Shown here: piece after piece, positions 3,716 through 20,306 of the stretch
Layout: every line of letters starts with the position of its first letter
How positions within the stretch are numbered: position 1 is the stretch's first letter
DNA from: Candidatus Limnocylindrus sp.
GTDB taxonomy: Bacteria > Chloroflexota > Limnocylindria > Limnocylindrales > Limnocylindraceae
Direction: 5' to 3' (one strand)
Length of the DNA: 64,000 bases
Assembly: GCA_040397215.1 (NCBI GenBank)
Contig: JBBAWK010000002.1
The notes under the pieces: generated by a model
Seen by the model: the letters and a program-made list of their open reading frames with translations, nothing else
What the model was told of the DNA's origin: nothing
Database searches by the model: none
Program-made: the position numbers and the translations under genes

Positions 3716-5629
3716 ATGGCTTCCGGGAGCGTTGCTGAGATCAAGAGCCGACTCGCCGTCGCCGACGTCGTTGGCGAGACGGTCGTGCTGCGCAAAGCGG
3801 GCGCTGCCTTCAAGGGCCTCTGCCCGTTTCATGGCGAGAAGACCCCCTCATTCGTTGTCACACCTGCCCGTGAAACCTGGAAGTGCTTCGGCTGCGGCAA
3901 GGGGGGCGACATCTTCACCTTCGTCATGGAACGCGACAGCCTGCCGTTCGGCGAAGCGTTGACCCAACTCGCCGCCAAGGCTGGCGTGACGATCGACGAT
4001 CGCAGTCGCGCCGAGGATGCGCGCAAGGTGCGACTCCGCGATGTGCTTGAGGGTGCAGTGAGCTTCTATCACGCCATCCTCACCGTGCACGAGCTCGGAC
4101 GCCCTGCACTCGACTACTTGCATTCGCGTGGATTCACCGACGAGACGATCGAGGCGCAGCGACTCGGCTGGTCACCAGATTCTTGGGACGCCTGCTCGAA
4201 GGCGCTCGCTGCGAAGCGCGGTGCAACACCCGCCGAGCTTGCCGCCGTCGGCCTCACCACCGAACGCGATGGTGGTCGTGGCGCCTATGACCGCTTTCGC
4301 GCGCGCGTGATCTTTCCGATCCGCGACGCGAATGGGAAGATAACCGGACTCGGTGGTCGCCTCCTCCCCGAAGATGACAAGCGCGGCGACCGCGGTCCGA
4401 AGTATTTAAACAGCGCAGCGACGGAACTCTTCGACAAGTCGCGCACCCTCTATCTCATCGATAAGGCGAAGCCCGCGATGCGCAGGAGCGGCACCGCGGT
4501 GCTCGTTGAGGGATATACCGACGCACTGATGGCGCATCAGTCTGGCTTCACAAACGTTGTCGCGAGCATGGGAACGGCACTGACTCCTGCGCAGGTCGCG
4601 CTCCTCCTGCGCTACGGATCGAAGATTCTCTTGGCGTACGACGTTGATGCTGCTGGAGCGAAGGCGGGCGCATTCGGAGCTACCGAACTGCTGCGACTCG
4701 TGACCGAGCTTGGTAGCGCCGATGGCGGACCATCGCTCGTTGATGTGGGGATCGTGCGCCTCCCTGACGGGAAAGATCCCGACGAAGTCGTTCGCGACCA
4801 ACCAGAAGCGTGGCGCGCCGCAACGGAGCAGCCGATTCCGGTGGTGGAGTACCTCATCGACACCCACGCTCAGGCACATGACTTAAAAGACCTTGGCGGT
4901 CGCAAGCGTGCTATCGACGGGATCAAGCCAATCCTTCGTAGCCTTCGTGACCCAATTGTTCGCGATGGCTACATCTCTGCGGCTGCACGGCGCATCGGCG
5001 TCGACGAGAACTCAATTCGTGAGGCGATGATCCAGCGCGGCGCTGAGACGGCCCGCGCAGAGAGCCGCATCTCGGCGGATAGCGTGCGCGCCGCCGACGC
5101 GGACGGTGACATCGACTCCATCCTTGCCGGGGTAACGCCCCCCGAGGCCGAGCTGCTCCGACTCCTTATTGCGGCGCCTGCCGAGCGGCTCCGTGTGCGC
5201 GACGTGCTTGTCGACCAGCTCTTCACGAGCGGATTGGCGCGCTCACTCTGGCGCGGACTCCGTGCGGCACTCGACAGTGCGCTGGAGGCGGGGGCGGCCG
5301 TTGATGCTCTGGAACGGCTACCCGTTACGATTGAGGGCGAAGAGCGCCGTCTGGCCCAGGCACTCTCCGAACGCCTTGGGGCCACCGTTGAGTTCACGCG
5401 AATCCGGATCGGTATTGATCAGACCGTCTTGCGGCTGGAGGCTGATCGCCTTGAAGAGGCGATGGCCTGGTCGCGCAGTGAGATTGCCGAGGCGGAGCGA
5501 GAGGGCGATGCCGCTCGTGTTCGGGCCCTCATGGAGGCAGAGCGAGATCTAGGACAAATGCGGAAGGCGCTCGACCGACGCTTCTTGGCGTCGGGAGTGC
5601 TCACAGCGGCAAAGGGGGGGAGCAAGTGA
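3716..5629 (+). CDS. dnaG: DNA primase
   Basis: It has a CHC2 zinc finger ([11 protein letters not shown]...CFGCG), a TOPRIM region and a C-terminal helical domain. An AGGAGG RBS lies 12 nt upstream of the ATG at 3716; the track ORF begins at TTG 3677. Confidence 0.85.
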
Positions 5630-7770
5630 CGAAGGCGAAGCAGGTAAGCAAGGTGACCGTGGGCACGCCCGTAAAGGCGACGCCAGTGAAGGCCGCTGCA
5701 AAGCCCGTCGCTAAGGTCGCCCCAAAGCCCGTCGTAAAGCCGACGGCGAAGGTCGCCGCGAAGCCCGCCGCCAAGCCGGTTGCAAAGCGCGGAACTCTCA
5801 CAACTTCAAAGCCCGCTGCAAAGTCAGTCGCCAAGGCCGCCCCAAAGCCTGCTGCAAAACCGGCTCCGAAGAAGTCCGTGCCAACAAAGGCCGTCGCGAA
5901 GAGTTCAATCAAGCCAGCGGCGAAAAAAACCGCTGCGCCGATCGCCAAGGCAAAGCCGGTCGCTAAGGCTGCGCCAGCGAATGGGAAGAAGCCCGTTGTC
6001 GTAGTCGTTGCGAAGGGCAGGACCGTTGCACGCGCTTCACTCGCGGCATCACCTGCGTCAACTGCGAAGTCGAAGGGCGAAAAGCCAAAGGCAGAGAAGA
6101 CTAAGAGCGAGAAGCTGGCACCTGCCGGAGCAGCCGCCCCCGCAAAGGCGCAGGGAAAACTCGCAAAGGGGAAGGCGGCGGCCGGCCCAACTGCAAAGCT
6201 TGACGGCGTCGCTGAGCCTGGCGCGGCCGATCTCGCCGAGATTGAGGTTGATGGCGTCGAGATGCTCAGCCCAGAGGCGGCCGCTGCACTCCTTGTTGCT
6301 GAGGTTGCCCCAGAGGCACCGAAGCCTGAAGTTGCTGAGCCAGTTGCGGAGTCAACAGGCGTTGACGATCCGGTGCGCATGTACCTCAAGGAGATTGGTC
6401 GCGTTGGGCTACTCACCGCCGAAGAGGAGGTCGTTCTCGCCAAGATGATTGAGCTCGGCGAGCAGATGGCCGATGAGCCGTGGAAGGCTGTCTACAACCT
6501 GCATCAGTGGACCTATCACGAGACGGAACTCAAGACGCGCAAGAAGAAGGAGTGGTACCGACTTGATCCGGCGCTCGCTGCGAAGGCGCACGCCACCAAT
6601 GCCGAAGCGATCGGTGCGTGGGTTAAGGGGCATCACGTGCACGAGTGCAAGGTCACCGGATTTGATAAGGCCTCGCGAGAAGTGGCGGGCGAGACCGCCA
6701 AGAAGAATCTGATGATTGCGAAGAGCCTCGTGAAGTCGTTCAATGAGCCGAACCGACGAAACCTTGCAGCAAAGACGGCGGAGATGATCGACTTTGCCTT
6801 CCAAACAGTGGGAACTGGCGACATGGAGAGCCGTGACAACGGTGTGCTCCAGAAGCTCTTCCTCTGGGCCCGCGACGAGATCGCCTGGCCAGCGCTGGAG
6901 ACCTGGATTGCCCAAGGGAAGCACATCGCCACGGATGGGAAGGACTGGATCCGCGAGGCGGGTTGGGATCCCGAGAATCCAGCACTCGGCAAGCTGCGCG
7001 GACGTGAAGGCTACGTCGTGCAGCTCGGCTGGCGCGGACGCGAGGAGCTGACCAAGGCGAACCTGCGCCTCGTCGTCTCCATCGCCAAGAAGTACATCGG
7101 TCGCGGCATGAGCTTCTTAGACCTGATCCAGGAGGGGAACATCGGACTGATTCGCGCCGTTGAGAAGTTTGAGTACATCAAGGGCTTCAAGTTCTCGACC
7201 TATGCAACGTGGTGGATCCGCCAGGCGATCACGCGAGCGATCGCCGATCAGGCGCGAACGATCCGCATCCCGGTGCATATGTATGAGCAGCTGAATCGCC
7301 TCACCCGCGTCCAGCGCCAGCTCTTCCAGGAGCTTGGCCGCGAAGCGACGGATGATGAGATCGCCAAGGAGCTCACCAAGGTCACCGAGTCGGAGGTGAC
7401 CGCAGAGCGCGTGCGCGAGATGCGCAAGGTGAGCCAGGAGCCGGTCTCCCTCGAGACGCCGATCGGCGAAGAGGAGGACAGCCATCTCGGCGACTTCATC
7501 GAGGACAAGTCGGCGAAGAAGCCGGACGAGGCGGCGAACAGCCAGCTGCTCTCCGAGCAGATCGTCGCCACGCTGGAGTCGCTCAGCCTCCGCGAGCAGC
7601 GGGTGCTCAAGTTGCGCTTCGGCCTGGAGGATGGGCGGCAGCGCACCCTGGAGGAGGTCGGAGCGGAGTTCAACGTGACGCGCGAACGCATCCGCCAGAT
7701 CGAGGCGAAGGCGCTGCGCAAGCTGCGCCACCCATCGCGAGCACGCAAGCTGCGCGACTACCTCGACTAG
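5626..7770 (+). CDS. rpoD: primary RNA polymerase sigma-70 factor with a ~200-aa Lys/Ala/Pro-repeat N-terminal extension
   Basis: Regions 1.2, 2 ([19 protein letters not shown]...[15 protein letters not shown]), 3 and 4 are conserved. The GTG start overlaps the dnaG stop (GTGA). The N-terminus is made of AKP(V/A)AK repeats. Confidence 0.9.
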
Positions 7771-7842
7771 GGGGATCGTGCGGCGGGGAGGAGCCGCGGC
7801 CCTCCCTGCTAATATTCCGCTCGCGGCAGAGGCCGCGGTCAT

Positions 7843-7917
7843 TCCGGCGTAGCTCAGTGGTAGAGCGGGCGGCTGTTAACCGCCATGTCGTAGGTTCGAA
7901 TCCTACCGCCGGAGCCA
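7843..7917 (+). tRNA. tRNA-Asn (anticodon GTT)
   Basis: It folds as a cloverleaf: acceptor TCCGGCG/CGCCGGA, D-arm GCTC-AGTGGTA-GAGC, anticodon arm GGCGG-CTGTTAA-CCGCC, T-arm GTAGG-TTCGAAT-CCTAC. The 3' CCA is encoded. Confidence 0.85.
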
Positions 7918-7945
7918 GCACCTAACGGGAGAGTGGAGGGCGCGA

Positions 7946-8314
7946 ATGGTTGCAACCGGACTCAGCGAGAGCCCTCAGGCCTACCGTACGAAGTTGCTTG
8001 AGCAGAGCGACAGCAAGATCGATGCCTGGGCCACCGGCTCGCTGCGTGACATGGCGAAGCGCAAGGGGATCGTCGCCGTCATCCGCGAGTTCTCCCACTC
8101 GGCACATCTCGATGAAGATGGTCTTGCTGGCGCATACACGCTCGGTGGCGGCCCGGCCGCAACGATGGGGCGTGACGCTGAGGGGCAACTCCTTCTCCCT
8201 GCGGTGGGCCTCTGGTGCCTCGTCCCCGGCCTGCGCACGGTAGATCCGAAGGGGAGTCGTGAGCGACTCGTCGCCTTCCTCGTAGCGACCTTCGAAGAGG
8301 TCGTCTACATCTAA
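7946..8314 (+). CDS. hypothetical protein (122 aa)
   Basis: The ORF begins 28 nt after tRNA-Asn with a GGAGGG RBS 6 nt before its ATG. I recognise no family for it. Confidence 0.5.
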   Translation: MVATGLSESPQAYRTKLLEQSDSKIDAWATGSLRDMAKRKGIVAVIREFSHSAHLDEDGLAGAYTLGGGPAATMGRDAEGQLLLPAVGLWCLVPGLRTVDPKGSRERLVAFLVATFEEVVYI

Positions 8315-8324
8315 CTTTGGTCGG

Positions 8325-9368
8325 CTACTCCGACTTCTGGCGCAAGATCGCGGCGAGGTTATCGAGCTTATTGCGCGCGATCAGCAGCCACTTCGCCATG
8401 TTGGCGCGATCCGTTTCACTGAGTGGAGTCCCCAACTCTGGCTGATCAATCTCATGCAGAACCAACGCGAGCGCGTCGATTGAACTTGCGAGGCTGTCGC
8501 GGGCGTTAGTTAACGCCGCGTCTGACGCTGACGCGATGGCTGCCGCTTGTGTGGAGACTGGCGCCGAGGCGCTCGCCACGGGCTGCTTCGCCGCGGCAAT
8601 GATCGGCCGCTCGTTTGGTGAGGCAAACGGGAAGATCGACGGTGCGACGACCTCTGGTGCGGGGGATGGCTCGGGGCGTTCGTCGCGGACAACACTCTTG
8701 AGGCGGGCGAGGGAGAGCTCGCCGCGCATCACCTGTGCCGCCAGTTCACTTCGTCGTGCCGGATCGGTGATCTTCATCAACTCATAGGCGTGGCTGATCG
8801 TGTCGGAGCGCTCCGCGACGAGGGCGCGGATGTCGGCCGGTGCATGCATCAGGCGGAGCCGATTTTCGACGTAGCCCTTGTCCTTGCCGATGCGTTCGGC
8901 CAGCTTGCGAATGCTGTAACCGAGTTCGCTCGTCATGCGCGCGAAGATCGCCGCCTCATCGAGTGGGGAGAGATCCTCACGCTGCAGGTTCTCGATGATT
9001 GCAACCTCAAGGGCGATCTCATCGCTCATCGCCTCAACGATTGCAGGAATCATCGGCAGTCCGAGTGAGAGCACGGCGCGCCAGCGACGTTCGCCGGCGA
9101 CAATCTCGTAGGAGCCCGGCTCGGTTGGGCGCACGATGATTGGCTGCAGCACCCCATGCTCACGAATGCTGGCGGTGAGCTCATCGATCGCCAGTGGAGG
9201 GAGTGCGAGGCGGGGCTGCTTAGCGTTGACCGTCACGCGATCGACCGCGATCTGTCGCACCGAGCGGTCACCGTGGGCGCCCTCGGGTGGGAGGAGCGAG
9301 AGAATGGCGTCGTCAAACTCCTGCCCGCTGGCCTCGGAGCCGCCCGTTGGCTGCTTCCCTTTCGGCAT
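8325..9368 (-). CDS. ParB/Spo0J-family CTPase-type DNA-binding protein (orphan, no parA partner)
   Basis: It has the ParB N-terminal domain with the GERRWRA CTP-binding motif and an HTH region ([22 protein letters not shown]). The start MPKGKQ sits behind an AGAGGAGG RBS; the track ORF over-extends the N-terminus. Confidence 0.75.
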
Positions 9369-9493
9369 GCTGCCTCCTCTGTTCGCTTCGTGCGCCTTGC
9401 GGCTCACCGTTTCGCCGCATCGTACCGCGCGAGCGGTGTGGGAGAATCGTGCGGAGCGAAGTGCCCGGAACGGGCCAGGTAAGGGAGGTGAGC

Positions 9494-11095
9494 GTGGGTA
9501 AGGAGCAGGGGCGCGACGCCGCGCGCCACACGACCACCTCAGGCGCACCCCTTGATGCCACCTACGGTCCAAACCCATCCCGCGACGCCGCCGCAGAGAT
9601 CGGTGCACCAGGCTACTTCCCGTACACGCGCGGCGTGCAAGAGACGATGTACCGCGGCCGCCTCTGGACGATGCGCCAGTACGCCGGCTTCTCGACGGCA
9701 CGCGAATCCAACGAGCGATATCGCTACCTCCTGGAGCAGGGCCAAACGGGACTCTCGGTCGCCTTCGATCTACCGACGCAGATGGGCTACGACTCCGACG
9801 CGCCAGAGGCGGAGGGCGAGGTCGGTCGCGTGGGTGTTGCGATCGACTCCATCGCCGACATGGAGACGCTCTTCCAGGGGATCCCACTCGACAAGGTCTC
9901 AACCTCGATGACGATCAACTCCACCGCGCCGATCCTGCTGGCGCTCTACGTAGCGATTGCCGAGCGACAGGGGGTGTCACGCGCCGAGCTCTCGGGAACG
10001 ACGCAGAACGATCTCCTCAAGGAGTACATCGCTCGCGGAACCTACATCTTCCCGCCCGAGCCATCGCTGCGACTGATCACTGACGTCTTTGAGTGGTGCG
10101 CCACCGAGCTGCCGAAGTGGAACACGATCAGCATCTCGGGTTATCACATGCGCGAGGCGGGGGCGACCGCCGCGCAAGAGCTTGCCTTCACCTTCGCCGA
10201 CGCGATCGCCTATGTCGACGCAGCGATCGCACGTGGCCTTGAGGTTGACGCCATTGCGCCGCGCCTCTCCTTCTTCTTCGCCGCCTGGACCGACATCCTC
10301 GAAGAGGTGGCGAAGTTCCGCGCCGCACGCCGAATCTGGGCACGCATCATGCGCGATCGCTACGGCGCAACGAGTGAGAAGTCGCTCCTCTGTCGCTTCC
10401 ATGTGCAGACCGCCGGCTCCACCCTCACGGCACAGTCCATTGACAACAATGTTGTTCGCGCTGCGTATCAAGCCCTCGCTGCCGTGCTTGGCGGCGCGCA
10501 GAGCCTGCATGTCAACGGCAAAGATGAGGCCCTCGCCCTCCCGACCGAAGCGTCGGCGCGCCTCGCCCTGCGCACGCAGCAGGTGCTCGCCCACGAGGCT
10601 GGCGTCGCAGGAACCGTTGATCCGCTCGGTGGCAGCTACGCCGTGGAGGCGCTCACCGATCAGGTTGAGCGCGACGCCCTCGCCCTCATCGCCGAGGTTG
10701 ACCGTCTCGGCGGCATGGTCGCCGCGGTTGCCGCAGGCTTCCCGCAACGCGCGATTCAAGATTCGGCGTACGCCTATCAACGAGAAATTGAGAGCGGCGA
10801 GCGCGTGATCGTGGGCGTGAATCGATTCGTCGACGAAGAGGTCGAGACGCCAGCCATTGCCCGCATTGACCCGGCCCGCGAGCGGGAGCAGGTTGCTGAG
10901 CTCCAGGCATTCCGCGCGGGGCGTGATGCCGCGACCGCAACCGCCGCCATCGCCGAGGTGATCGCCACGGCGAAAGGGAGCGCCAACATGATGCCGCCGA
11001 TCCTGGCCGCCGTGAAGGCCGGCTGCACCGTTGGTGAGATCAGCGCCGCCCTACGCAGCGTGTGGGGCGAGCACCGCGAGGCGATGGTCCTATGA
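9494..11095 (+). CDS. methylmalonyl-CoA mutase, catalytic (large-subunit N-terminal) domain; the B12-binding domain is not fused
   Basis: The MCM substrate-binding TIM-barrel signatures are present ([26 protein letters not shown]). It is 534 aa and ends before the cobalamin-binding domain. The GTG start follows a GGAGG RBS. Confidence 0.8.
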
Positions 11096-11562: not shown

Positions 11563-12462
11563 TTAGCGCTTCGTGTACCCGGCCTCAATCAAGAGTCGTG
11601 GCAGTTCGGTCGGCGAGGCGGCCACCTTGAACCCGGCGGCCTCCAGTGCAGCGATCTTGTCGATCGCTCGGCCCGATGCGCCAGAGACGATCGCCCCGGC
11701 GTGCCCCATGCGGCGACCCTCAGGTGCGGCGCGTCCGGCGATGAAGGCGACACGTGGCAGGTGCTTCAGGTGTTCGCCCGCCCATGCGGCGGCCTCCTCC
11801 TCCGCGGATCCGCCGATCTCGCCGATTAGTACGAGTGCGCGCGTCGCAGGATCCGCAGCGAAGAGCTCAAGTGCGTCACGGAAGGTGGTGCCGATGATCG
11901 GATCGCCACCGATGCCGAGGCAGGTGGACTGACCGATGCCAGCATCGGTCATCGACTGCACCGCCTCGTAGGTCAGCGTTCCGGAGCGGCTCACCACGCC
12001 AACGTCACCAGGTAAGTGAATGGAGGCGGGGATGATGCCGATCTTTGCGCCAAGCCCGTTCACGCCTGGCGTTGTTGCGCCTGGGCAGTTCGGTCCGATC
12101 AGTCGCGCGCCATGCTGCTGCACCACAGCGAGGGCGCCGACCATGTCGTGCACCGGGATCCCCTCGGTAATGCAGAAGATCGTCTTGATGCCAGAAGCGG
12201 CTGCTTCGGCGATGGCATCTGCAGCGCCCGCCGCAGGAACGAAGATGCAGCTGGTGTTTGCGCCGGTCTTCTCGACCGCTTCGCGAACGGTGTCAAAGAC
12301 GGGAACGGTGCCGTCGAGGCCGAGCTCGCCGCCGCGACCTGGCGTGACGCCCGCAACGATCTTGGTGCCATAAGCGGCCATCTGACCGGCGTGGAAGCCG
12401 CCCTCACGTCCGGTGAGGCCTTGCACTACGAGTCGGGTGTGCTGATCAACGAGAATGCTCAC
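11563..12462 (-). CDS. sucD: succinyl-CoA synthetase alpha subunit
   Basis: It has the CoA-binding Rossmann fold and the phospho-His loop (SRSGTLTYE...GHAGAI). Confidence 0.9.
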
Positions 12463-13634
12463 TTGCCGCCTCCTGCTGTGGCAAGGGCCACAGCCTTCTC
12501 GGCCGCCTCGTCGAGGCTTGCTGCAGTTTCAAATCCGCCTTCACGTAGCAGTACGGCGGCCTCTGCCGCATTCGTGCCAACGATGCGCACGACCATCGGC
12601 ACGATGCGCTCCTGTTGCGCGCGCGCCTCGATGAGTCCCTTCGCGACCTCGTCGCCGCGCGTGATGCCGCCAAAGATGTTCACAAGGATTGCTTTCACTC
12701 CCGCATCGGCAAGGATGATGCGCATTGCGGCCGCAACCTTATCGGCGCGAGCACCGCCACCAATGTCGAGGAAGTTTGCTGGCGTGCCTCCAGCACGGGT
12801 CACGAGGTCGAGCGTCGTCATGGCGAGTCCGGCGCCGTTCACCATGCAGCCGATGCTGCCATCAAGTCGGATGTAGGAGATCCCCTGCTCGCGCGCCTCG
12901 CGGTCGATCGGATCCTCGCTGTCGGCATCGCGCCATGCGGCAAGGTCAGGGTGACGATCGAGTGCGGAATCATCCAACGTCATCTTGGCGTCGAGGCAGA
13001 CAAGTTGCTCACCGCCTGGAAGCTCGGGCGCTGGTACCACGGCGAGCGGATTCACCTCGACGAGATCGGCGTCGCTCTCACGTGCAATCTTTACGAGCCC
13101 GGCGGCGATCACGCAGAACTGCTTCAGCAGTTCACCGCGCAGACCAATGCCGAATCCGAGGCGGCGCGCTTGGAACGGGAGCAGGCCACCGTGTGGGTGC
13201 GCAACTTCTCGAACGATCGCGGCCGGATCCTTTGCGGCGACCTCTTCGATCTCCATGCCACCAGCGGCGGATGCCATGACGAGAACGCCGCGCGTAGTGC
13301 GATCGATCAGTGCGGCGAGATAGATCTCGCGGATGATCGTGGAGGCTGGCGCAACGAGCACGCGTCGCACGGGAAGGTCCTTGATCGTGAGGGCGAGAAT
13401 TGCTGCGGCGGTGGCCTCGGCCTCTGCCGCGCTCGCGGCGAGCTTGACCCCGCCCGCCTTCCCTCGTCCGCCGACGAGGACCTGGGCCTTAACCACGACC
13501 TGTGCGACCCCAGAGGCGATGAGGCGCTCAGCGATGGCGCGGGCGCCCGCGGCGGTAGTGGCCACGTCGGCATCGGGGACGGGGAGGCCGGCTCGAAATA
13601 AGAGTTCTCGGGCTTCAGCCTCGTGTAGCTTCAC
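12459..13634 (-). CDS. sucC: succinyl-CoA synthetase beta subunit
   Basis: It has an ATP-grasp fold with N-terminus [21 protein letters not shown] precedes the GTG start. Its stop overlaps the sucD start. Confidence 0.85.
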
Positions 13635-13782
13635 TTCGCCTCCGCATGGTCCGTGGTGGGTTCCTCCCCGCTGTAACAGGGGGTAGTGTACGCGGGCAGA
13701 CTTCAAGCGTTGCGGCTAGGATTTGGGGGGCACAATCGTCAGGATTTCAACGCCCTGATTGGGAGTAAGGAGGGGTTTACAC

Positions 13783-14196
13783 ATGACCCAAGGATCTAGC
13801 CCACTCGCCTCTCCGCAGAAGCTTCGAAACTACCCAGCATATCGCGGCGGGGAGGGGATGGTCGCCTGGGCCTTCCATCGAATCTCAGGCATTGGCGTAT
13901 GGGCCTTCATCGTCTTGCACGTATTTGACATTTGGTTGATTGGGGCTAATCCCGCGCTCTATGACCAACTGGGCAAAATTTATTCAAGCGCGCCTGGCCG
14001 TGTGATGGAGACCCTCCTAGGAGCGGCGTTGTTTTATCACGCCCTCAACGGCATGCGCATCGTCGTCATGGACTTCTGGCCTGCGCTGACGATCTTTCAC
14101 CGTGGACTGTGGCGAGCTGTTTGGGTCACCTTCTTTATCTTTGGCCTACCTGGCGCGTACATCATCCTGAAGCCTATCTGGGAGATGGCATCATGA
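13783..14196 (+). CDS. sdhC: succinate dehydrogenase cytochrome b subunit
   Basis: It is a small three-TM haem-binding protein placed first in an sdhCDAB arrangement. Confidence 0.75.
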   Translation: MTQGSSPLASPQKLRNYPAYRGGEGMVAWAFHRISGIGVWAFIVLHVFDIWLIGANPALYDQLGKIYSSAPGRVMETLLGAALFYHALNGMRIVVMDFWPALTIFHRGLWRAVWVTFFIFGLPGAYIILKPIWEMAS

Positions 14197-14582
14197 GCGC
14201 TCAAAAGTATTCACTCTCCGGCCGTCCGCGCCCGACAGGGTCGCGCGCTGATCTCTACGTCTGGCGGGCGGTGCGAATCACTTCAATTGCGCTCTTTGTA
14301 TTGGCGCTTGCGCACTTCTCGATCACGCACTTCGTCTACGAGGTTGGTGACCAGAGTGCAGAGTGGGTCCGCCAGACTCGTTGGAACTCGATCCCCCTCC
14401 GTGTGCTGGACTGGGGCATGTTGATGACTGTGTTGGTGCATGGGTTCCTTGGCATGCGAACGGTCATGCAGGACTACGTCCCCTCGCGCATTAGGCGGGG
14501 GTCGCTCATCGGCCTTTACGTCATTGCGCTTCTGCTATTCGTACTTGGCACCCAGGTCATTGCGACCCTACCGATGCGTTAG
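14193..14582 (+). CDS. sdhD: succinate dehydrogenase hydrophobic membrane anchor
   Basis: Its ATG overlaps the sdhC stop (ATGA). It is a three-TM protein. Confidence 0.7.
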   Translation: MSAQKYSLSGRPRPTGSRADLYVWRAVRITSIALFVLALAHFSITHFVYEVGDQSAEWVRQTRWNSIPLRVLDWGMLMTVLVHGFLGMRTVMQDYVPSRIRRGSLIGLYVIALLLFVLGTQVIATLPMR

Positions 14583-14590
14583 GGGGACAT

Positions 14591-16372
14591 ATGGCTAGTG
14601 CGCTACGAGCAGAGGTTGGGCAGATTGACGTTGACGCGATCGTGGTCGGCGCGGGTGGCGCTGGCCTTTGGGCCGCGCTTGAGCTTGCACGCGAAGGAAT
14701 TCCAACCGCCGTACTGACCAAGCTCTATCCGACCCGCTCGCATACCGGTGCTGCGCAAGGTGGGGTCTGCGCGGCACTCGGCAACGTTGAAGAGGACCAC
14801 TGGGAGTGGCACATGTTTGACACGATCAAGGGTGGCGACTACCTCGCCGATCAGGATGCGGCCGAAGTGCTCGCGCGTGAGGCGATCCCCGCGGTGATTG
14901 AACTGGAGCGCATGGGCCTTCCGTTTAATCGCACTCCTGACGGCAAGATTGATCAGCGTCGATTTGGAGGACATACACGCAATTACGGCGAGGGACCGGT
15001 GCGTCGTAGCTGCTACGCCGCAGACCGCACTGGGCACATGATCCTGCAAACGCTCTACCAGCAGTGCATCAAGGCGGGGGTCAAGTTTTATGACGAGTAT
15101 CACGTTGTCGATCTGGTCTTCGAAGGGGGCGAGGCGGACAAGGGAGGGCGCTGCTCTGGGGTTGTTGGGTACAAGATCGCCGACGGTTCGCTCCATGTGT
15201 TTCGTGCGAAGGCGGTGCTGCTCGCCACAGGTGGGTACGGTCGCGCGTGGCGCGTAACGTCAAACGCACACTCATTGACCGGTGATGGGATGGCACTCGC
15301 TTGGCGGCATGGCGTGCCACTCCAGGATATGGAGTTCTACCAGTTTCATCCGACCGGCATTGTCGGTACGGGAATTCTCTTGAGCGAGGCGGCGCGAGGT
15401 GAGGGAGGCTACCTCATCAATGATGCAGGGCAGCGATTTATGGAGTCTTACGCTCCGAAGTTGATGGAGCTTGCGCCGCGCGACATGATCTCACGTGCGA
15501 TCTATCAGGAGATCCGTGAGGGTCGAGGGATCGGGGGAAAAGACTACATCCATCTTGACGTGAGACACCTCGGTCGAAAGGTGATTGAAGAGAAGCTCCC
15601 CGACATCACCGAACTTGCTCGCATCTATCAGGGCGTAGAACCGATCAGCGAGCCAGTCCCGGTTCAGCCAACCGCGCATTACGCCATGGGAGGCGTTCCG
15701 ACAAATCTTGAGACTGAGGTGCTCGCCGATGCTCGTGGCAACGTTGTGCCTGGGCTCTTTGCCGCCGGCGAAGTCGCCTGCGTAAGCGTGCACGGGGCGA
15801 ATCGCCTGGGGACCAACTCCCTCGTCGACCTGTTGGTGTTCGGCAAACGTGCCGGGATCCGTATGGCCCAAGTTTGCAAGAGCACCCCGATGCCCGGCTC
15901 AACAAGCGGGGCCGAGCGAGCCGTCCGCGAAGAGCTCCTCGCCCTGAGCACGCGCCCATCTGGGGTGCGCCCGGCGGAGATTCGCCGTGAACTCGCCGCC
16001 CTGATGATGGACAACGTCGGCGTCTATCGCGACGAGGCCCTCCTTGGCGCCGCGGTAATGGGGATCGCCAAGTTGAAGGGGGAGTACGCCAACGTGCGCG
16101 TGGAGGACACCGGGAGCGTCTTTAATACCGACCTCCTTGAGGCGCGCGAGCTCGGCTACCTGCTAGACACCGCGGAGGCGACAGCCGTCTCCGCCTACGC
16201 ACGAACAGAGTCACGTGGTGCGCACAGCCGTGAAGACTTTCCAGAGCGAAACGACGCTAAGTTCCTAGCGCACACTCTGGTCTGGCAGGGGAGCAATGGT
16301 GCACCAGCCACGAAGCTAGACTACAAACCCGTCACGATTACCAAGTTTGAGCCGAAGGCGAGGGTTTACTAA
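14591..16372 (+). CDS. sdhA: succinate dehydrogenase flavoprotein subunit
   Basis: It has the FAD GxGxxG motif (VVGAGGAG), the covalent-FAD His region (RSHTGAAQGG) and the active-site RxxxH signature. Confidence 0.92.
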   Translation: MASALRAEVGQIDVDAIVVGAGGAGLWAALELAREGIPTAVLTKLYPTRSHTGAAQGGVCAALGNVEEDHWEWHMFDTIKGGDYLADQDAAEVLAREAIPAVIELERMGLPFNRTPDGKIDQRRFGGHTRNYGEGPVRRSCYAADRTGHMILQTLYQQCIKAGVKFYDEYHVVDLVFEGGEADKGGRCSGVVGYKIADGSLHVFRAKAVLLATGGYGRAWRVTSNAHSLTGDGMALAWRHGVPLQDMEFYQFHPTGIVGTGILLSEAARGEGGYLINDAGQRFMESYAPKLMELAPRDMISRAIYQEIREGRGIGGKDYIHLDVRHLGRKVIEEKLPDITELARIYQGVEPISEPVPVQPTAHYAMGGVPTNLETEVLADARGNVVPGLFAAGEVACVSVHGANRLGTNSLVDLLVFGKRAGIRMAQVCKSTPMPGSTSGAERAVREELLALSTRPSGVRPAEIRRELAALMMDNVGVYRDEALLGAAVMGIAKLKGEYANVRVEDTGSVFNTDLLEARELGYLLDTAEATAVSAYARTESRGAHSREDFPERNDAKFLAHTLVWQGSNGAPATKLDYKPVTITKFEPKARVY

Positions 16373-17080
16373 ATGGCTTCTGCTACACAGGTTGAGCTCA
16401 AGATCCAGCGATATGATCCGGAGCGCGACAGTGAGCCGCACTGGCAAACGCTGACGGTTCCGGTGGAGCCTATGGATCGCGTGCTTGATCTGCTCACGCG
16501 GGCAAAAGAGCTCTTCGATGGCTCAATCACCTTCCGTCGCTCTTGCGCGCACGGTGTCTGCGGCTCTGACGCTCTGCTGATTAATGGTCGTAATCGGCTC
16601 GCCTGTAAGTTGCGAGTAGAAGCGTTGGGGCGAACGATCACGGTGGCCCCACTCCCAGGCCTGCCGATCGTCAAGGACCTAGTCGTTGATATGGAGGAGT
16701 TCTTTGAAAAATTCCGCTCCGTACAGCCGTATCTTGTGGCAGCACCAGTTGAGGGTGACGGTGAGCGGATTCAGAGTGAAGAGCAGCGCGATCGCTATGA
16801 CGATACGACCAAGTGCATCCTCTGTGCGGCATGTACAACTTCGTGCCCAAGTTTCTGGGCGCAACCAGAGTACGTTGGCCCCGCGGCGATCGTGAACGCG
16901 CACCGTTTTATCTTTGACTCGCGTGATGAGAACGCCGATACACGCTTGGACATCTTGTCTGACGAAAATGGCGTGTGGCGTTGCCGCACCACCTTCAATT
17001 GCGTGGAAGCTTGCCCACGCGGCATCAATATCACGAAGGCGATTCTTGAGGTTTCCTCCGCAATTAGCGCACGGCGGTAA
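16373..17080 (+). CDS. sdhB: succinate dehydrogenase iron-sulfur subunit
   Basis: It has 2Fe-2S (CxxxxCxxC), 4Fe-4S and 3Fe-4S cysteine clusters (CILCAACTTSCP, CVEACP). Confidence 0.9.
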   Translation: MASATQVELKIQRYDPERDSEPHWQTLTVPVEPMDRVLDLLTRAKELFDGSITFRRSCAHGVCGSDALLINGRNRLACKLRVEALGRTITVAPLPGLPIVKDLVVDMEEFFEKFRSVQPYLVAAPVEGDGERIQSEEQRDRYDDTTKCILCAACTTSCPSFWAQPEYVGPAAIVNAHRFIFDSRDENADTRLDILSDENGVWRCRTTFNCVEACPRGINITKAILEVSSAISARR

Positions 17081-17082
17081 CG

Positions 17083-18393
17083 TTGTCGATTCGGTCGTAC
17101 ATCATTCGTACCGATGGAGCGTGTCGGGGGAACCCTGGGCCAGCATCTATCGGTGTGGCTCTCTATGACGCTTCGCTACCGGGGTCCGATGATCCTGACG
17201 CAATGCCCATCGCCTCGATCTCTGCAGCGATCGGCACAACTACGAATAACGTCGCAGAGTGGCGTGCCGTGGTGGCTGCGATTGACTTCGCTGCCGAGCT
17301 CGGCGCGCGTGAAATTGATCTACTCCTGGATAGCAAGCTCGTGGTTGAGCAGCTCCAGGGTCGCTGGCGTGTGCGAGACGCCAAGCTCGCCCCGCTCTGC
17401 GATGAGGCCCTAAGGGGGCTGACGCGCTTTGCGCATTGGAGTGCACGCCATGTGCCGCGCGCACTGAACGGTCGTGCCGATTCACTCGCTAATGAGGCGC
17501 TTGATCGCGCGCTGCGCGGCGGGCCAGCCTGGGTCGCTCGCCGTCCGCAAGACTTAGTCCCCGCCACGGCGACTGCTATCCCTGGCTCCGATTCTTCTGC
17601 TACTGCGGCGACGCGTATCACCGTGCTCGGTTCAGGGGCGAGCCGTGGCGTGCCGCGTGTCGGTTGTCGCTGCGGGGTCTGTCTTTCACGCGATCAGCGC
17701 AACCGCCGTCTGCGCAGCTCGGTACTCGTGGAGTGGCTCGACGGTGTCACTGAGCGCGGCGTCATCATTGATCCCGGGATGGACCTGCGCCTGCAGGCGC
17801 TGCGCCATGGTGTCACTCGACTTGATGGTGCGCTGGTCACCCACATTCATGTTGACCACAGCGGTGGGATTGACGAGTTGCGCGCCTATACCGATGCGCA
17901 AGATGTTGTACTGCCGATCGGCGCAGGCGAAGCGACCGCGGATGAGCTGCGAAAGCGCTGGGAGTACGCGGTTGATGGACGAACGGCACCTGGCTCGGGA
18001 ATCCCTGCGCTGCAACTCGTTGCGTCGGATCGCGAGGTAACGATCGCGGGCCGCTCATTTCAGGCGATCCACATCGTTCACGGGAAGCGCCCGGCTCACG
18101 GTTGGCGGAGTGGGGGATTCGCCTATCTGACCGACGTTAGCTCGGTTCCGGCGGCATCGCGCGACCTTCTGGGCGACCTTGACCTACTGATCGTTTCGGC
18201 GCTGCGCGATCTGCCGCACCCAACGCACCAGACCGTGGACGAGGCGTTGGAGCTGATTCGAGCGGTTGCCCCACGTCGGGCGCTCCTCACCCACCTTGAT
18301 CACGACCTCGACTTTGAGGATCTGGCGGCCCGCCTCCCTGCTGGGGTTGCCCCCGCCTTTGACGGGCTCGTCGTAGAGGTTCCGGCGCGCTAG
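17083..18393 (+). CDS. rnhA: fusion protein: N-terminal ribonuclease HI domain + C-terminal MBL-fold (PhnP/PqqB-like) metallo-hydrolase domain
   Basis: Residues 1-150 carry the RNase H signature (IRTDGACRGNPGPA...E...D...RADSLAN). The second half has LGSGASRGVPRVGCRCGVC followed by the HxHxDH motif (THIHVDHSGG). The TTG start lies 2 nt after the sdhB stop. Confidence 0.75.
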   Translation: MSIRSYIIRTDGACRGNPGPASIGVALYDASLPGSDDPDAMPIASISAAIGTTTNNVAEWRAVVAAIDFAAELGAREIDLLLDSKLVVEQLQGRWRVRDAKLAPLCDEALRGLTRFAHWSARHVPRALNGRADSLANEALDRALRGGPAWVARRPQDLVPATATAIPGSDSSATAATRITVLGSGASRGVPRVGCRCGVCLSRDQRNRRLRSSVLVEWLDGVTERGVIIDPGMDLRLQALRHGVTRLDGALVTHIHVDHSGGIDELRAYTDAQDVVLPIGAGEATADELRKRWEYAVDGRTAPGSGIPALQLVASDREVTIAGRSFQAIHIVHGKRPAHGWRSGGFAYLTDVSSVPAASRDLLGDLDLLIVSALRDLPHPTHQTVDEALELIRAVAPRRALLTHLDHDLDFEDLAARLPAGVAPAFDGLVVEVPAR

Positions 18394-18402
18394 ACTGCCG
18401 AT

Positions 18403-18748
18403 CCGGCGAGATGGCCGGACGGCCGCGTCGCCCCTTCGGGGGCGTCGAGGAAAGTCCGGGCTCCGAGGTGTAAAGGCAGCGGGTAACGCCCGTCCGCCGT
18501 AAGGCGCGGACTAGTGCCACAGAGACGAGTCCACCGCAGAGCTTCGGCTCAGCGGTGGGGTGAAACGCGGCAAACTCTGCCTGGAGCAAGGTCGAATAGG
18601 GAGGCATTCCAGTCGCTTGCGGCTGGACCGGCGCACCGCCGGGACCTCCGGGTTGACCGCTAGAGCCCCCGAGCAATCGGGGGTCGAGATGGATGGCCGT
18701 CCCCCCGCAAGGGGGACAGAACCCGGCTTACAGGCCATCTCGCCGGAC
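18403..18748 (+). ncRNA. rnpB: RNase P RNA, bacterial type A
   Basis: The universally conserved blocks are present: GAGGAAAGTCCGGGCTCC (P4 5' strand), GGTAACGCC, AGTGCCACAGAGA, GGGTGAAA, GGAGCAAGGTCGAATAGGG and ACAGAACCCGGCTTA (P4 3' strand). The P1 helix pairs CGGCGAGATGGCC with GGCCATCTCGCCG, and P3 is a UUCG hairpin. Confidence 0.9.
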
Positions 18749-18855
18749 TCCTACCCGTGCTCGATTCGTGCTTGGCCGCCCTCAAACCCTCTCACGTCAG
18801 ACCTGCCCATGGGCCCCCTTGACAGGGGCGAATGGTGGGGGCAAGATGTACTCAA

Positions 18856-18885
18856 GTGGTTCTAAGTGGGGGAAGGTGGGGTAAC
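18856..18885 (+). promoter_or_regulatory. putative MraZ operator: three 10-bp direct repeats AGTGGTTCTA / AGTGGGGGAA / GGTGGGGTAA
   Basis: GTGG(G) direct repeats at 10-bp periodicity lie 35-60 nt upstream of mraZ, matching the known MraZ-box architecture. A further GTGGGG copy lies upstream at 18834. Confidence 0.6.
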
Positions 18886-18918
18886 ACCTCCCATTGGGCC
18901 GCGGCGGAGGGTGTACTG

Positions 18919-19347
18919 GTGTTTACCGGCGAATATCGTCATGCCATCGATGGGAAGGGACGCGTTGCCGTCCCCGCGCGCTTCCGAGCGCAGCTCGATG
19001 AGGGGGCCTTCGTCTCCCGTTGGCTCGACAACTGCCTCGCGATCTTCCCGCGCGCCGCGTGGGATGACCTCGCCGCTCGCGTCGCCGCCCTGCCAACCGG
19101 CAACGCCACCGCCCGTGAATTCGCCCGCTTCCTCTTCGGCAGCGCCTTTGAAGTAGAGCTCGACGCGCAGGGCCGCCTCCTCCTGCCTGCAACGTTGCGA
19201 ACCTGGGGGCAGCTCGACGCTGAAGCGATGGTCGTTGGCGCACGCGATCACGCCGAAATCTGGACACCGAAGCGCTGGGATTCGTATCGCGGCGGCATGG
19301 AGTCTTCTGACGCTCTCGCCGCGCAACTCGAGGAGCTCGGCTTCTAA
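18919..19347 (+). CDS. mraZ: transcriptional regulator MraZ
   Basis: The N-terminus VFTGEYRHAIDGKGRVAVP has the duplicated SpoVT/AbrB-like MraZ fold. A GGAGGG RBS precedes the GTG start. It is the first gene of the dcw cluster. Confidence 0.85.
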   Translation: MFTGEYRHAIDGKGRVAVPARFRAQLDEGAFVSRWLDNCLAIFPRAAWDDLAARVAALPTGNATAREFARFLFGSAFEVELDAQGRLLLPATLRTWGQLDAEAMVVGARDHAEIWTPKRWDSYRGGMESSDALAAQLEELGF

Positions 19348-20306
19348 TGGCAACGGGTGCGACCCTCCATCGCCCCGTCTTACTGACTGAACTGCGCGGC
19401 GCGCTGGCGGTGCGCCCAAACGGCACCTATGTCGACGCCAACCTCGGTGGTGGCGGACACGCCGAAGCGGTGCTTGAAGCCTCCGGGCCACGCGGACTCC
19501 TTCTCGGTATTGATGCGGATGGTGGCGCGATCGCGATGAGTCGGGTGCGACTCGCTCGCTTCGGCGACCGCCTCTCCACATTCCACGGGAGCAGCACACA
19601 CCTCGCGCGTGCCGTTACCGATGCCGGCTTCAGCGAGGTTGACGGCGTCTACTTCGATCTCGGGCTCTCCTCCGATCAGCTCGTTGACCGCGAACGCGGA
19701 TTCGGCATTCGCGCGGGTGGCCTCCTTGACCTGCGCTTCGACACACGCACCGGTGAATCGGCGGCTGAGCTGGTTGCACAGGCGAGCGCGGCCGAGCTTG
19801 AGCAAATCTTCCGCGACTATGGTGAAGAGCCTCACGCGGCGAAGATTTCGCGGGCCATCGTTGCAACGCGTGTGAGTGCGCCGATCACCACCGCAGAGGG
19901 ACTCGCCGCACTCGTGGAGCAGAGTGTGCCAAAGCGCTACGGCCCACCATCACGGATTCATCCAGCGACGCGCGTCTTTCAGGCGCTGCGCATTGCGGTC
20001 AACGACGAACTCACCGCCCTCAGCACGGCGCTTGCCGCAGCGATCGCCGCACTTTGCGTCGGTGGGCGTATTGTTGTCCTTACGTATCACTCCCTTGAAG
20101 ATCGCATTGTGAAGCAGGCGTTTGCTGCCGCGGCGCGCGTCTGCATCTGCCCGCCGCGTGTTCCCGTCTGCACTTGCGCAAGCCAGGCAACGCTGCGCCT
20201 CATTAACAAGCACCCCATCACCGCAAGTGAAGAGGAGATTGCTGCAAACCCACGAAGTCGCAGCGCTAAGCTTCGAGCGGCAGAGCGACTAGAGCGTGCA
20301 GCATGA
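19347..20306 (+). CDS. rsmH: 16S rRNA (cytosine1402-N4)-methyltransferase
   Basis: It has SAM-binding motifs (YVDANLGGGGH, DLGLSSDQL). Its ATG overlaps the mraZ stop. Confidence 0.9.
   Translation: MATGATLHRPVLLTELRGALAVRPNGTYVDANLGGGGHAEAVLEASGPRGLLLGIDADGGAIAMSRVRLARFGDRLSTFHGSSTHLARAVTDAGFSEVDGVYFDLGLSSDQLVDRERGFGIRAGGLLDLRFDTRTGESAAELVAQASAAELEQIFRDYGEEPHAAKISRAIVATRVSAPITTAEGLAALVEQSVPKRYGPPSRIHPATRVFQALRIAVNDELTALSTALAAAIAALCVGGRIVVLTYHSLEDRIVKQAFAAAARVCICPPRVPVCTCASQATLRLINKHPITASEEEIAANPRSRSAKLRAAERLERAA

Follow-up and report, generated by a model that had tools for sequence, protein, structure and literature searches.

Why would a bacterium join an RNase H to a metallo-hydrolase in one protein, and does it matter that the gene lies directly in front of the RNase P RNA gene, rnpB? 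The question is raised by a gene on the plus strand at positions 17083–18393 of a 64,000-nucleotide stretch of Candidatus Limnocylindrus sp. (contig JBBAWK010000002.1, assembly GCA_040397215.1), called the window here. It encodes a protein of 436 amino acids (aa) with an N-terminal RNase H domain and a C-terminal domain of the metallo-β-lactamase (MBL) fold. A sequence-only reading had proposed that the protein couples cleavage of RNA:DNA hybrids to end processing, and that the gene is possibly co-transcribed with rnpB and has a functional link to RNA processing. The explanation that, as a whole, we prefer and consider fairly probable is a bifunctional two-enzyme protein with independent domains, which arose by a single fusion in Limnocylindria and is followed by an rnpB gene with its own promoter.

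Conservation and origin of the fusion

The open reading frame begins with TTG, ends with TAG and runs through 436 codons with no internal stop, and Pfam found both domains in its translation. The motifs that had drawn attention to the gene are all present: DGACRGNPGPA (containing D11), GRADSLAN (D133), LGSG...GCRCGVC (C195, C197 and C200), and HIHVDH (aa 254–259). The same architecture is kept in relatives. Among 5.8 billion proteins searched, more than 100 full-length homologues with both domains were found, at identities down to approximately 45%. Those nearest to the window protein measure 436 aa at 100% query coverage, and the homologues overall range from 436 to 495 aa. Every fusion homologue with an organism name is labelled Candidatus Limnocylindrus or Chloroflexota. 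When one genome per species was scanned, the best match (99% identity) was in Candidatus Limnocylindrus sp. EUL_349. The same scan gave 25 fusion-bearing genome loci, which belong to Limnocylindria or unclassified Chloroflexota metagenome-assembled genomes (MAGs), except for a few MAGs with generic or evidently mislabelled titles. RNase H and MBL lie on the same strand and in the same order, with rnpB downstream, in 31 of the 31 loci that were fetched.

The pairing is unusual, as had been supposed. An exhaustive HMMER search of 1.84 billion representatives at 50% identity contained only two clusters of full-length fusions (P0019 and P0089); stand-alone relatives of the MBL domain numbered in the hundreds (250–280 aa, 36–51% identity). 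Our literature searches on an RNase H–MBL fusion found no relevant description, and public annotation of the homologues is limited to ‘MBL fold metallo-hydrolase’ or ‘phosphoribosyl 1,2-cyclic phosphate phosphodiesterase’.

Two neighboring genes could in principle have been joined by a frameshift in sequencing or by chimeric assembly. We rejected this origin, and we regard its probability as close to nil. The full-length fusions come from independent ENA, JGI, NCBI and Logan assemblies; contigs of 0.5–3.5 Mb are among them, in addition to the 31 fetched loci. The linker changes in length between homologues, yet the frame is always open. The only observation on the other side is a few short contigs in which the MBL half is paired with other N-terminal domains (P0040 and P0048). 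These contigs of 2–3.4 kb carry MBL halves 93% and 68% identical to that of the window, with Response_reg and PF22548 as the N-terminal domains, and may be assembly chimeras or true rearrangements.

In a neighbor-joining tree that also holds the 30 stand-alone representatives closest to them, the fused MBL domains form a single clade in 94 of 100 bootstraps. As this groups the MBL domains of both fusion clades together, the tree indicates a single fusion event in an ancestor within Limnocylindria. Between the two clades the RNase H halves are 62–71% identical and the MBL halves 46–48% identical; the MBL half thus diverges faster. We conclude that the fusion is real and conserved, a domain architecture that is apparently undescribed and that forms a second kind of RNase HI–phosphoesterase fusion.

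The two domains and the question of coupling

The RNase H domain comprises aa 5–146 (17095–17520, plus strand) and falls in the archaeal-type subfamily of RnhC/Rv2228c. Pfam matched aa 6–139 to RVT_3 (PF13456, 59.4 bits; threshold 21.6) and to RNase_H (PF00075, 36.7 bits; threshold 25.8). The four catalytic carboxylates (DEDD) are D11, E59, D83 and D133. In one alignment (A1), D11, E59 and D83 were invariant and D133 was conserved in at least 90%; an alignment of 116 sequences showed no substitution at D11 and two each at E59, D83 and D133. Among the best-matching solved structures is that of the N-terminal domain of M. tuberculosis Rv2228c (PDB ID: 3HST; 98 bits, 42–43% identity, TM 0.91). 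Other solved relatives are Halobacterium RNase HI (PDB ID: 4E19) and the metagenomic LC11-RNase H1, and the TM scores across the three are 0.88–0.93. By Foldseek, the model of the domain (pLDDT 85–97) superposes on 3HST and 4E19 with TM scores of 0.91–0.93 and rmsd values of 1.5–1.9 Å. The N-terminal half is probably an active, housekeeping RNase HI, because its catalytic residues are conserved across the family and it is more conserved than the MBL half.

RNase H domains of this subfamily also occur on mobile DNA. In loci L048 and L049, such a domain (70% identical to that of Rv2228c) lies amid mobile-element or phage-like genes, namely FtsK-like, GmrSD, IS605 OrfB and Y1 transposase genes. 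The context of protein P0220 is mobile-element-like (GmrSD, IS605, Y1 transposase) and has no bearing on the fusion.

The MBL domain comprises aa 178–433 (17614–18381, plus strand), of which aa 227–404 match Lactamase_B_2 (92.2 bits; threshold 27). The assignment to a PhnP/PqqB type held in part. The domain is of the PhnP family (COG1235-type), lies on the PhnP/PqqB branch of the superfamily and has the N-terminal Cys-rich motif and intact metal ligands, but it fails the curated cut-offs of both families. PhnP proper (TIGR03307) gave 68 bits against 272.25, over an N-terminal segment only, and PqqB (TIGR02108) gave 19.2 bits against 245. The fusion gene has no phn or pqq genes nearby; its neighbors are sdhCDAB and rnpB. 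The best NCBIfam matches, the GPMC-system MBL (NF038231, 234.9 bits against 360) and PRK02113 (202 bits against 386), are related families to which the domain does not belong. RNase Z (TIGR02651) was rejected at 24 bits against 292.95, with identities of 14–18% in Foldseek. The anti-Pycsar protein Apyc1 (PF23023) was rejected at 20.1 bits against 50, as the match covers only a 30-residue stretch at HxHxDH.

The closest solved structure is 6B9V, with 181 bits over aa 178–432, a TM score of 0.91 and 37–38% identity. It was deposited as ‘a new diphosphatase from the PhnP family’, and the entry is cited as FAD-photoproduct diphosphatase (Fpd; Beaudoin et al. 2018, Biochem J 475:261). The window MBL shares with it the Cys-x-Cys-x-x-Cys motif, HxHxDH and the downstream His and Asp ligands. 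Fpd differs in being a stand-alone protein of approximately 260 aa, and at approximately 37% identity orthology is uncertain. The enzyme reportedly depends on Mn to hydrolyse FAD photoproducts, FAD and ADP-ribose, and has almost no cyclic phosphodiesterase activity. Next comes a Brucella melitensis ‘beta-lactamase-like protein’ (PDB IDs: 3MD7, 3PY5, 3PY6 and 3QH8; 165–169 bits; TM 0.85–0.86 for 3QH8/3MD7), also stand-alone and without an RNase H domain. It crystallized in complex with a mononucleotide (AMP in 3QH8 and GMP in 3MD7), an indication that the ligands of this MBL subfamily are of the nucleotide type; we know of no published function for the Brucella protein. E. coli PhnP itself (phosphoribosyl 1,2-cyclic phosphate phosphodiesterase; PDB ID: 3G1P) is more distant from the C-terminal half (TM 0.74–0.76, 22% identity, sequence match over aa 178–268 only), and Foldseek placed RNase Z/ELAC enzymes among the more remote structural neighbors.

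One relative of the MBL domain of the stand-alone type (P0262, 45% identity) is fused to a fragment of an FAD synthetase (FAD_syn) domain that follows it, which fits the proposed tie of the subfamily to FAD metabolism. A tie to the FAD-containing SdhA encoded upstream is unsupported, as the sdh–rnh synteny is also found with RNase H genes that lack the MBL domain (L034, L035 and L121). Other relatives of the stand-alone type are fused to GNAT acetyltransferases (P0248/P0296) or to a calcineurin-like phosphoesterase (P0282). Judged from its relatives, the MBL half most likely hydrolyses a small nucleotide-type molecule at a phosphodiester or phosphoanhydride bond and does not act on polymeric RNA.

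The canonical metal ligands of the MBL half are all present in the window protein. They are H254, H256, D258 and H259 of the HxHxDH motif (17842–17859, plus strand), with H333, D351 and H404/H407 as further conserved candidates. H254, H256, D258, H333, D351, H379, H382, H404 and H407 are invariant in the alignments. The cysteines of the Cys-x-Cys-x-x-Cys motif (C195, C197 and C200; 17665–17682, plus strand) are invariant in 30 of 30 aligned fusion proteins and align to GCDCAVC of 6B9V. The counterpart of this motif in E. coli PhnP holds a structural zinc ion. The last histidine of HxHxDH behaves differently. H259 (17857–17859) is His in all 41 close homologues, and the position is Ala, Ser, Thr or Val in 74 of the 75 members of the more distant fusion clade (homologues P0044–P0120). 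As the other ligands are invariant there, this replacement suggests that the second metal site has been remodeled in that clade.

Together with the faster evolution of the MBL half (46–48% identity between the clades, against 62–71% for RNase H), the replacement could be taken to mean that the half has degenerated as a catalyst or has taken on another role; it might, for instance, bind a metal or nucleotide as a regulatory module or serve RNase H as a dimerization scaffold. This seems to us highly unlikely: the clade of the window keeps all canonical ligands (41 of 41), and in both clades the remaining ligands and the Cys motif are invariant, which would be unexpected for a dead site.

The two halves are joined by a linker rich in Ala, Ser, Thr and Pro (approximately aa 156–177; 17548–17613, plus strand). 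The full AlphaFold2 model has a mean pLDDT of 87.5 and a pTM of 0.60, and pLDDT falls below 50 at linker residues 158–173. The linker has no conserved columns in the alignment and is variable in length. A disordered linker and the pTM of 0.60 are consistent with the absence of a fixed packing between the halves.

Would the two activities nevertheless act on one substrate? The RNase H could incise hybrids or embedded ribonucleotides, and the tethered MBL domain could clear 2′,3′-cyclic-phosphate or 3′-phosphate ends (blocking ends that arise, for example, by spontaneous or topoisomerase-type cleavage at ribonucleotides), or could itself be a nuclease on the same substrate. The MBL domain does share the fold and metal sites of PhnP, and E. 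coli PhnP hydrolyses 2′,3′-cyclic nucleotides in vitro; RNase Z/ELAC enzymes are among its remote structural neighbors, the same RNase H lineage has separately gained a His_Phos domain at the same position, and selection has maintained the fusion down to approximately 45% identity. We still regard coupled repair as unlikely. RNase H leaves 3′-OH and 5′-phosphate ends; therefore, its cleavage makes no cyclic-phosphate end for a PhnP-like domain, and the first step yields no substrate for the second. The MBL domain has as its closest relatives a diphosphatase of small molecules and proteins with bound mononucleotides, the score against the RNase Z model is 24 bits where 293 are needed, the model of the whole protein shows no evident inter-domain interface across the disordered linker, and the larger fusion clade has a changed metal site.

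The comparison with mycobacterial RnhC, the one analogue that has been studied, in which an RNase HI is joined to a CobC-like acid phosphatase, also stands against coupling. RnhC (Rv2228c/MSMEG_4305) has an RNase H of the same subfamily, followed likewise by a variable linker and a C-terminal phosphoesterase. In vivo, the two activities of RnhC can be separated. One study of RnhC considered the fusion to have probably been fixed by drift, and another assigned the rifampicin and pigmentation phenotypes solely to the phosphatase domain. The window protein does not itself belong to the RnhC family: the family model (NF005567, PRK07238) gave 135.7 bits against 326, over profile positions 3–190 of 378 only, and Pfam found no His_Phos_1 domain. 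RnhC has the His_Phos_1 C-terminus, NIF3–DUF164 genes upstream and a home in Actinomycetota, whereas the fusion has an MBL-fold C-terminus of the PhnP family, sdhCDAB upstream and a home in Chloroflexota. From the analogy with RnhC and the small-molecule nature of the nearest MBL proteins, it is most likely that each domain acts on its own, and the coupled cleavage and end processing proposed in the sequence-only reading is not borne out.

The rnpB neighborhood

Rfam confirmed a bacterial class A RNase P RNA gene at 18407–18746 on the plus strand (RF00010, 231.7 bits against a gathering threshold of 100, model positions 1–367 of 367). It was correctly placed immediately downstream of the fusion gene; the gap after the stop codon is 13 nt, not the 10 nt given earlier. 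In close relatives the gap is approximately 17 nt. All fusion loci with enough 3′ sequence have rnpB downstream on the same strand, mostly directly. In a soil-type relative (L001/L002), a GDSL-lipase gene (6344–6997) is inserted between the two, and a tight junction is therefore not obligatory.

The adjacency is not specific to the fusion. At seven genome loci of other Limnocylindrales/Chloroflexota MAGs, an RNase H gene without the MBL domain (57–64% identical) lies upstream of rnpB. A metagenome scan with the RNase H-domain alignment gave 80 further loci, none with an MBL domain; both positive and negative rnpB calls were confirmed with Rfam. Of 67 informative loci, 36 had rnpB downstream on the strand of the RNase H gene, and none had it upstream or on the opposite strand. 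The linkage follows the identity of the RNase H to that of the window: it is present in 20 of 23 loci at ≥55% and in 11 of 38 at <48%. It is absent from the other 27 of these 38 informative loci of distant family members, as Rfam confirmed for nine with long flanks.

Genes of the RnhC type share the arrangement. In L126, an RNase H–His_Phos gene of RnhC architecture is directly followed by rnpB after 20–58 nt (the starts given by Rfam and nhmmer differ). In two mycobacteria-like genomes (L046 and L047), rnpB is 3.4–5.6 kb downstream on the same strand with unrelated genes between, and at the M. kansasii locus (L045) there is no rnpB within 10 kb; the linkage has therefore loosened in some mycobacteria.

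The genes upstream differ by lineage. They are sdhAB in Chloroflexota and, elsewhere, CT398_CC/Zn_ribbon_9 (DUF164), sometimes preceded by dnaG–rpoD–tRNA. The order DUF164–RNase H–rnpB was found in L126, L081, L096, L073, L130 and L131. On Deltaproteobacteria-like or Actinomycetota-like contigs, the (dnaG–rpoD–tRNA)–DUF164–RNase H–rnpB block spans 3904–6155 (L130), 4273–6181 (L131), 7033–8898 (L081) and 7300–9549 (L126). Relatives of one DUF164 group carry Deltaproteobacteria or Pseudomonadota MAG labels. As the upstream partners vary while rnh followed by rnpB stays constant, the adjacency, judged from gene order, is a property of the RNase H gene, is much older than the fusion and recurs across phyla. 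On the same comparison, it was between rnh and rnpB that Limnocylindria gained the MBL domain and Actinomycetota the His_Phos domain.

According to a figure legend in Pereira et al. 2011 (PMC3372290), rnhA neighbors DUF164 and, in Borrelia, rnpB follows DUF164; the paper does not address a link between rnhA and rnpB. Compared with the dnaG–rpoD–(NIF3)–DUF164–rnhA neighborhood of that paper, Limnocylindria keep only the rnh–rnpB pair and have sdhCDAB upstream in place of DUF164. Our literature searches on Rv2228c and rnpB found no relevant description, and the linkage of rnh and rnpB across phyla is apparently undiscussed in the literature searched.

The adjacency can be explained without co-transcription. 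Of 70 non-identical junctions, 63 have a TANNNT hexamer that starts 12–21 nt (mode 16–17) before rnpB, compared with 1.9% of control windows from the same loci. The variants include TAGACT, TAGAAT and TACAAT, and most are TAGACT or TAGAAT. The window and its close relatives have TAGACT (18391–18396 in the window, plus strand), the TAG of which is the stop codon of the fusion gene. Transcription would be predicted to start at approximately 18403–18406, about 7 nt past the hexamer, where helix P1 begins. The simplest reading of this conservation is that rnpB has its own −10-type promoter inside the 3′ end of the fusion gene. A TTGACG at 18359–18364 was considered as a −35 element and rejected, as it lies 26 nt from the −10 box, which is too far. 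Read-through into rnpB from the sdh operon may occur in addition.

These results bear on a possible link to RNase P, in which the protein would be co-transcribed with rnpB and act on the locus or its transcript, for example by clearing R-loops at a highly transcribed, GC-rich gene for a structured RNA or by trimming precursors of the RNase P RNA. The rnh–rnpB order does recur on one strand in Chloroflexota, Actinomycetota-like and Deltaproteobacteria-like genomes despite the differing upstream genes, with rnpB never upstream or on the opposite strand, and a scan of 14000–19500 found no intrinsic terminator-like site there, including between the fusion gene and rnpB. We nevertheless consider this link very unlikely. 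rnpB has its own conserved −10 box, the linkage is missing from most informative distant loci (27 of 38), the genes are 3–6 kb apart in mycobacteria-like genomes, with no rnpB inside 10 kb in M. kansasii, the MBL domain is not involved in the linkage, and the order may be historical, a remnant of the dnaG–rpoD–DUF164–rnhA housekeeping neighborhood. A functional link of the fusion to rnpB thus finds no support in an adjacency that is shared with stand-alone RNase H and RNase H–His_Phos genes in three phyla.

The fusion gene follows the genes for succinate dehydrogenase. The flavoprotein subunit, sdhA (14591–16372), and the Fe–S subunit, sdhB (16373–17080), are both ORFs on the plus strand, whose syntenic genes in relatives carry FAD_binding_2/Succ_DH_flav_C and Fer2_3 domains, respectively. 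As the fusion gene starts only 2 nt past the sdhB stop codon, it probably belongs to the same operon. Over 11563–17080 the order is sucD/sucC on the minus strand and the divergent sdhC–sdhD–sdhA–sdhB, with sdh junctions that overlap or are 1–9 nt apart. On the 3′ side of sdhB are the fusion gene, rnpB and then the mraZ–rsmH–ftsL–ftsI division cluster, an order derived, like that of the suc and sdh genes, from the synteny of relatives. The whole suc–sdh–fusion–rnpB–division block is syntenic across Limnocylindria relatives at approximately 50% protein identity. A TTGACA hexamer lies upstream of mraZ (18819–18885), and GTGG(G) repeats come after it, three at 10-nt spacing (approximately 18856, 18866 and 18876) and one at approximately 18836; in form the repeats are similar to the MraZ-binding TGGGN repeats of E. 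coli.

Mechanism and significance

We propose that the protein would work as a ‘beads-on-a-string’ bifunctional enzyme, with a disordered linker of approximately 20 residues between its domains. The N-terminal type 1 RNase H, of the subfamily of RnhC/Rv2228c and Halobacterium RNase HI, would cut the RNA strand of RNA:DNA hybrids. The C-terminal domain would be a binuclear-metal MBL hydrolase, with Fpd, an FAD-photoproduct/ADP-sugar diphosphatase, as its nearest characterized relative, and would act on a small nucleotide-type molecule rather than on polymeric RNA. The two activities would be independent, as in RnhC. An MBL gene would have been captured once, in a Limnocylindria ancestor, into the slot between rnh and rnpB. 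The fusion gene would be expressed as the last cistron of the sdhCDAB operon, and rnpB would be transcribed from its own promoter, with TAGACT over the fusion stop codon.

Several points weigh against this proposal. A neighbor-joining tree of the RNase H domain (150 aa, without support values) fails to unite the fusion-bearing genes as one clade. Two separate captures of a phosphoesterase at the C-terminus of one RNase H lineage could hint at coupling and not chance. The identity of approximately 37% to Fpd leaves the substrate unfixed, and PhnP-family enzymes include cyclic phosphodiesterases; with the last His of HxHxDH lost in the distant clade, the chemistry of the MBL half may not be uniform across the family. 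A simple scan of 14000–19500 gave no consensus sigma-70 promoter, and the −10-only promoter is deduced from conservation. What the evidence shows is the identity of the domains, their intact catalytic residues, the conservation of the fusion, the one origin of its MBL half, the rnh–rnpB linkage across phyla and the conserved −10 hexamer; the substrates, the independence of the domains and the use of the promoter are inferred.

The repeated capture of phosphoesterases, His_Phos in Actinomycetota and a PhnP-family MBL in Limnocylindria, can also be read more boldly, as the mark of a two-step pathway at ribonucleotide-derived lesions, with DUF164–rnh–rnpB as an undescribed module that ties RNase H to RNase P RNA biogenesis or to R-loop control. 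The RNase H might recognize or incise the hybrid, and the second domain might clean 2′,3′-cyclic-phosphate or 3′-phosphate ends or destroy a nucleotide by-product. We consider this quite unlikely.

The fusion offers a second, independent RNase HI–phosphoesterase pairing beside RnhC, and with it a natural comparison by which functional coupling can be set against neutral accident. It also provides a working hypothesis, that of an Fpd-like nucleotide diphosphatase, for a protein annotated only generically in the Limnocylindria, an abundant freshwater lineage. The occurrence of this RNase H subfamily directly 5′ of rnpB in at least three phyla, together with the conserved −10 box, aids annotation and the mapping of transcription starts in compact genomes of uncultured bacteria. 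Our findings on the fusion do not overturn current understanding; what is left as the more intriguing part is the linkage of rnh and rnpB across phyla and the repeated capture of phosphoesterases at that place.

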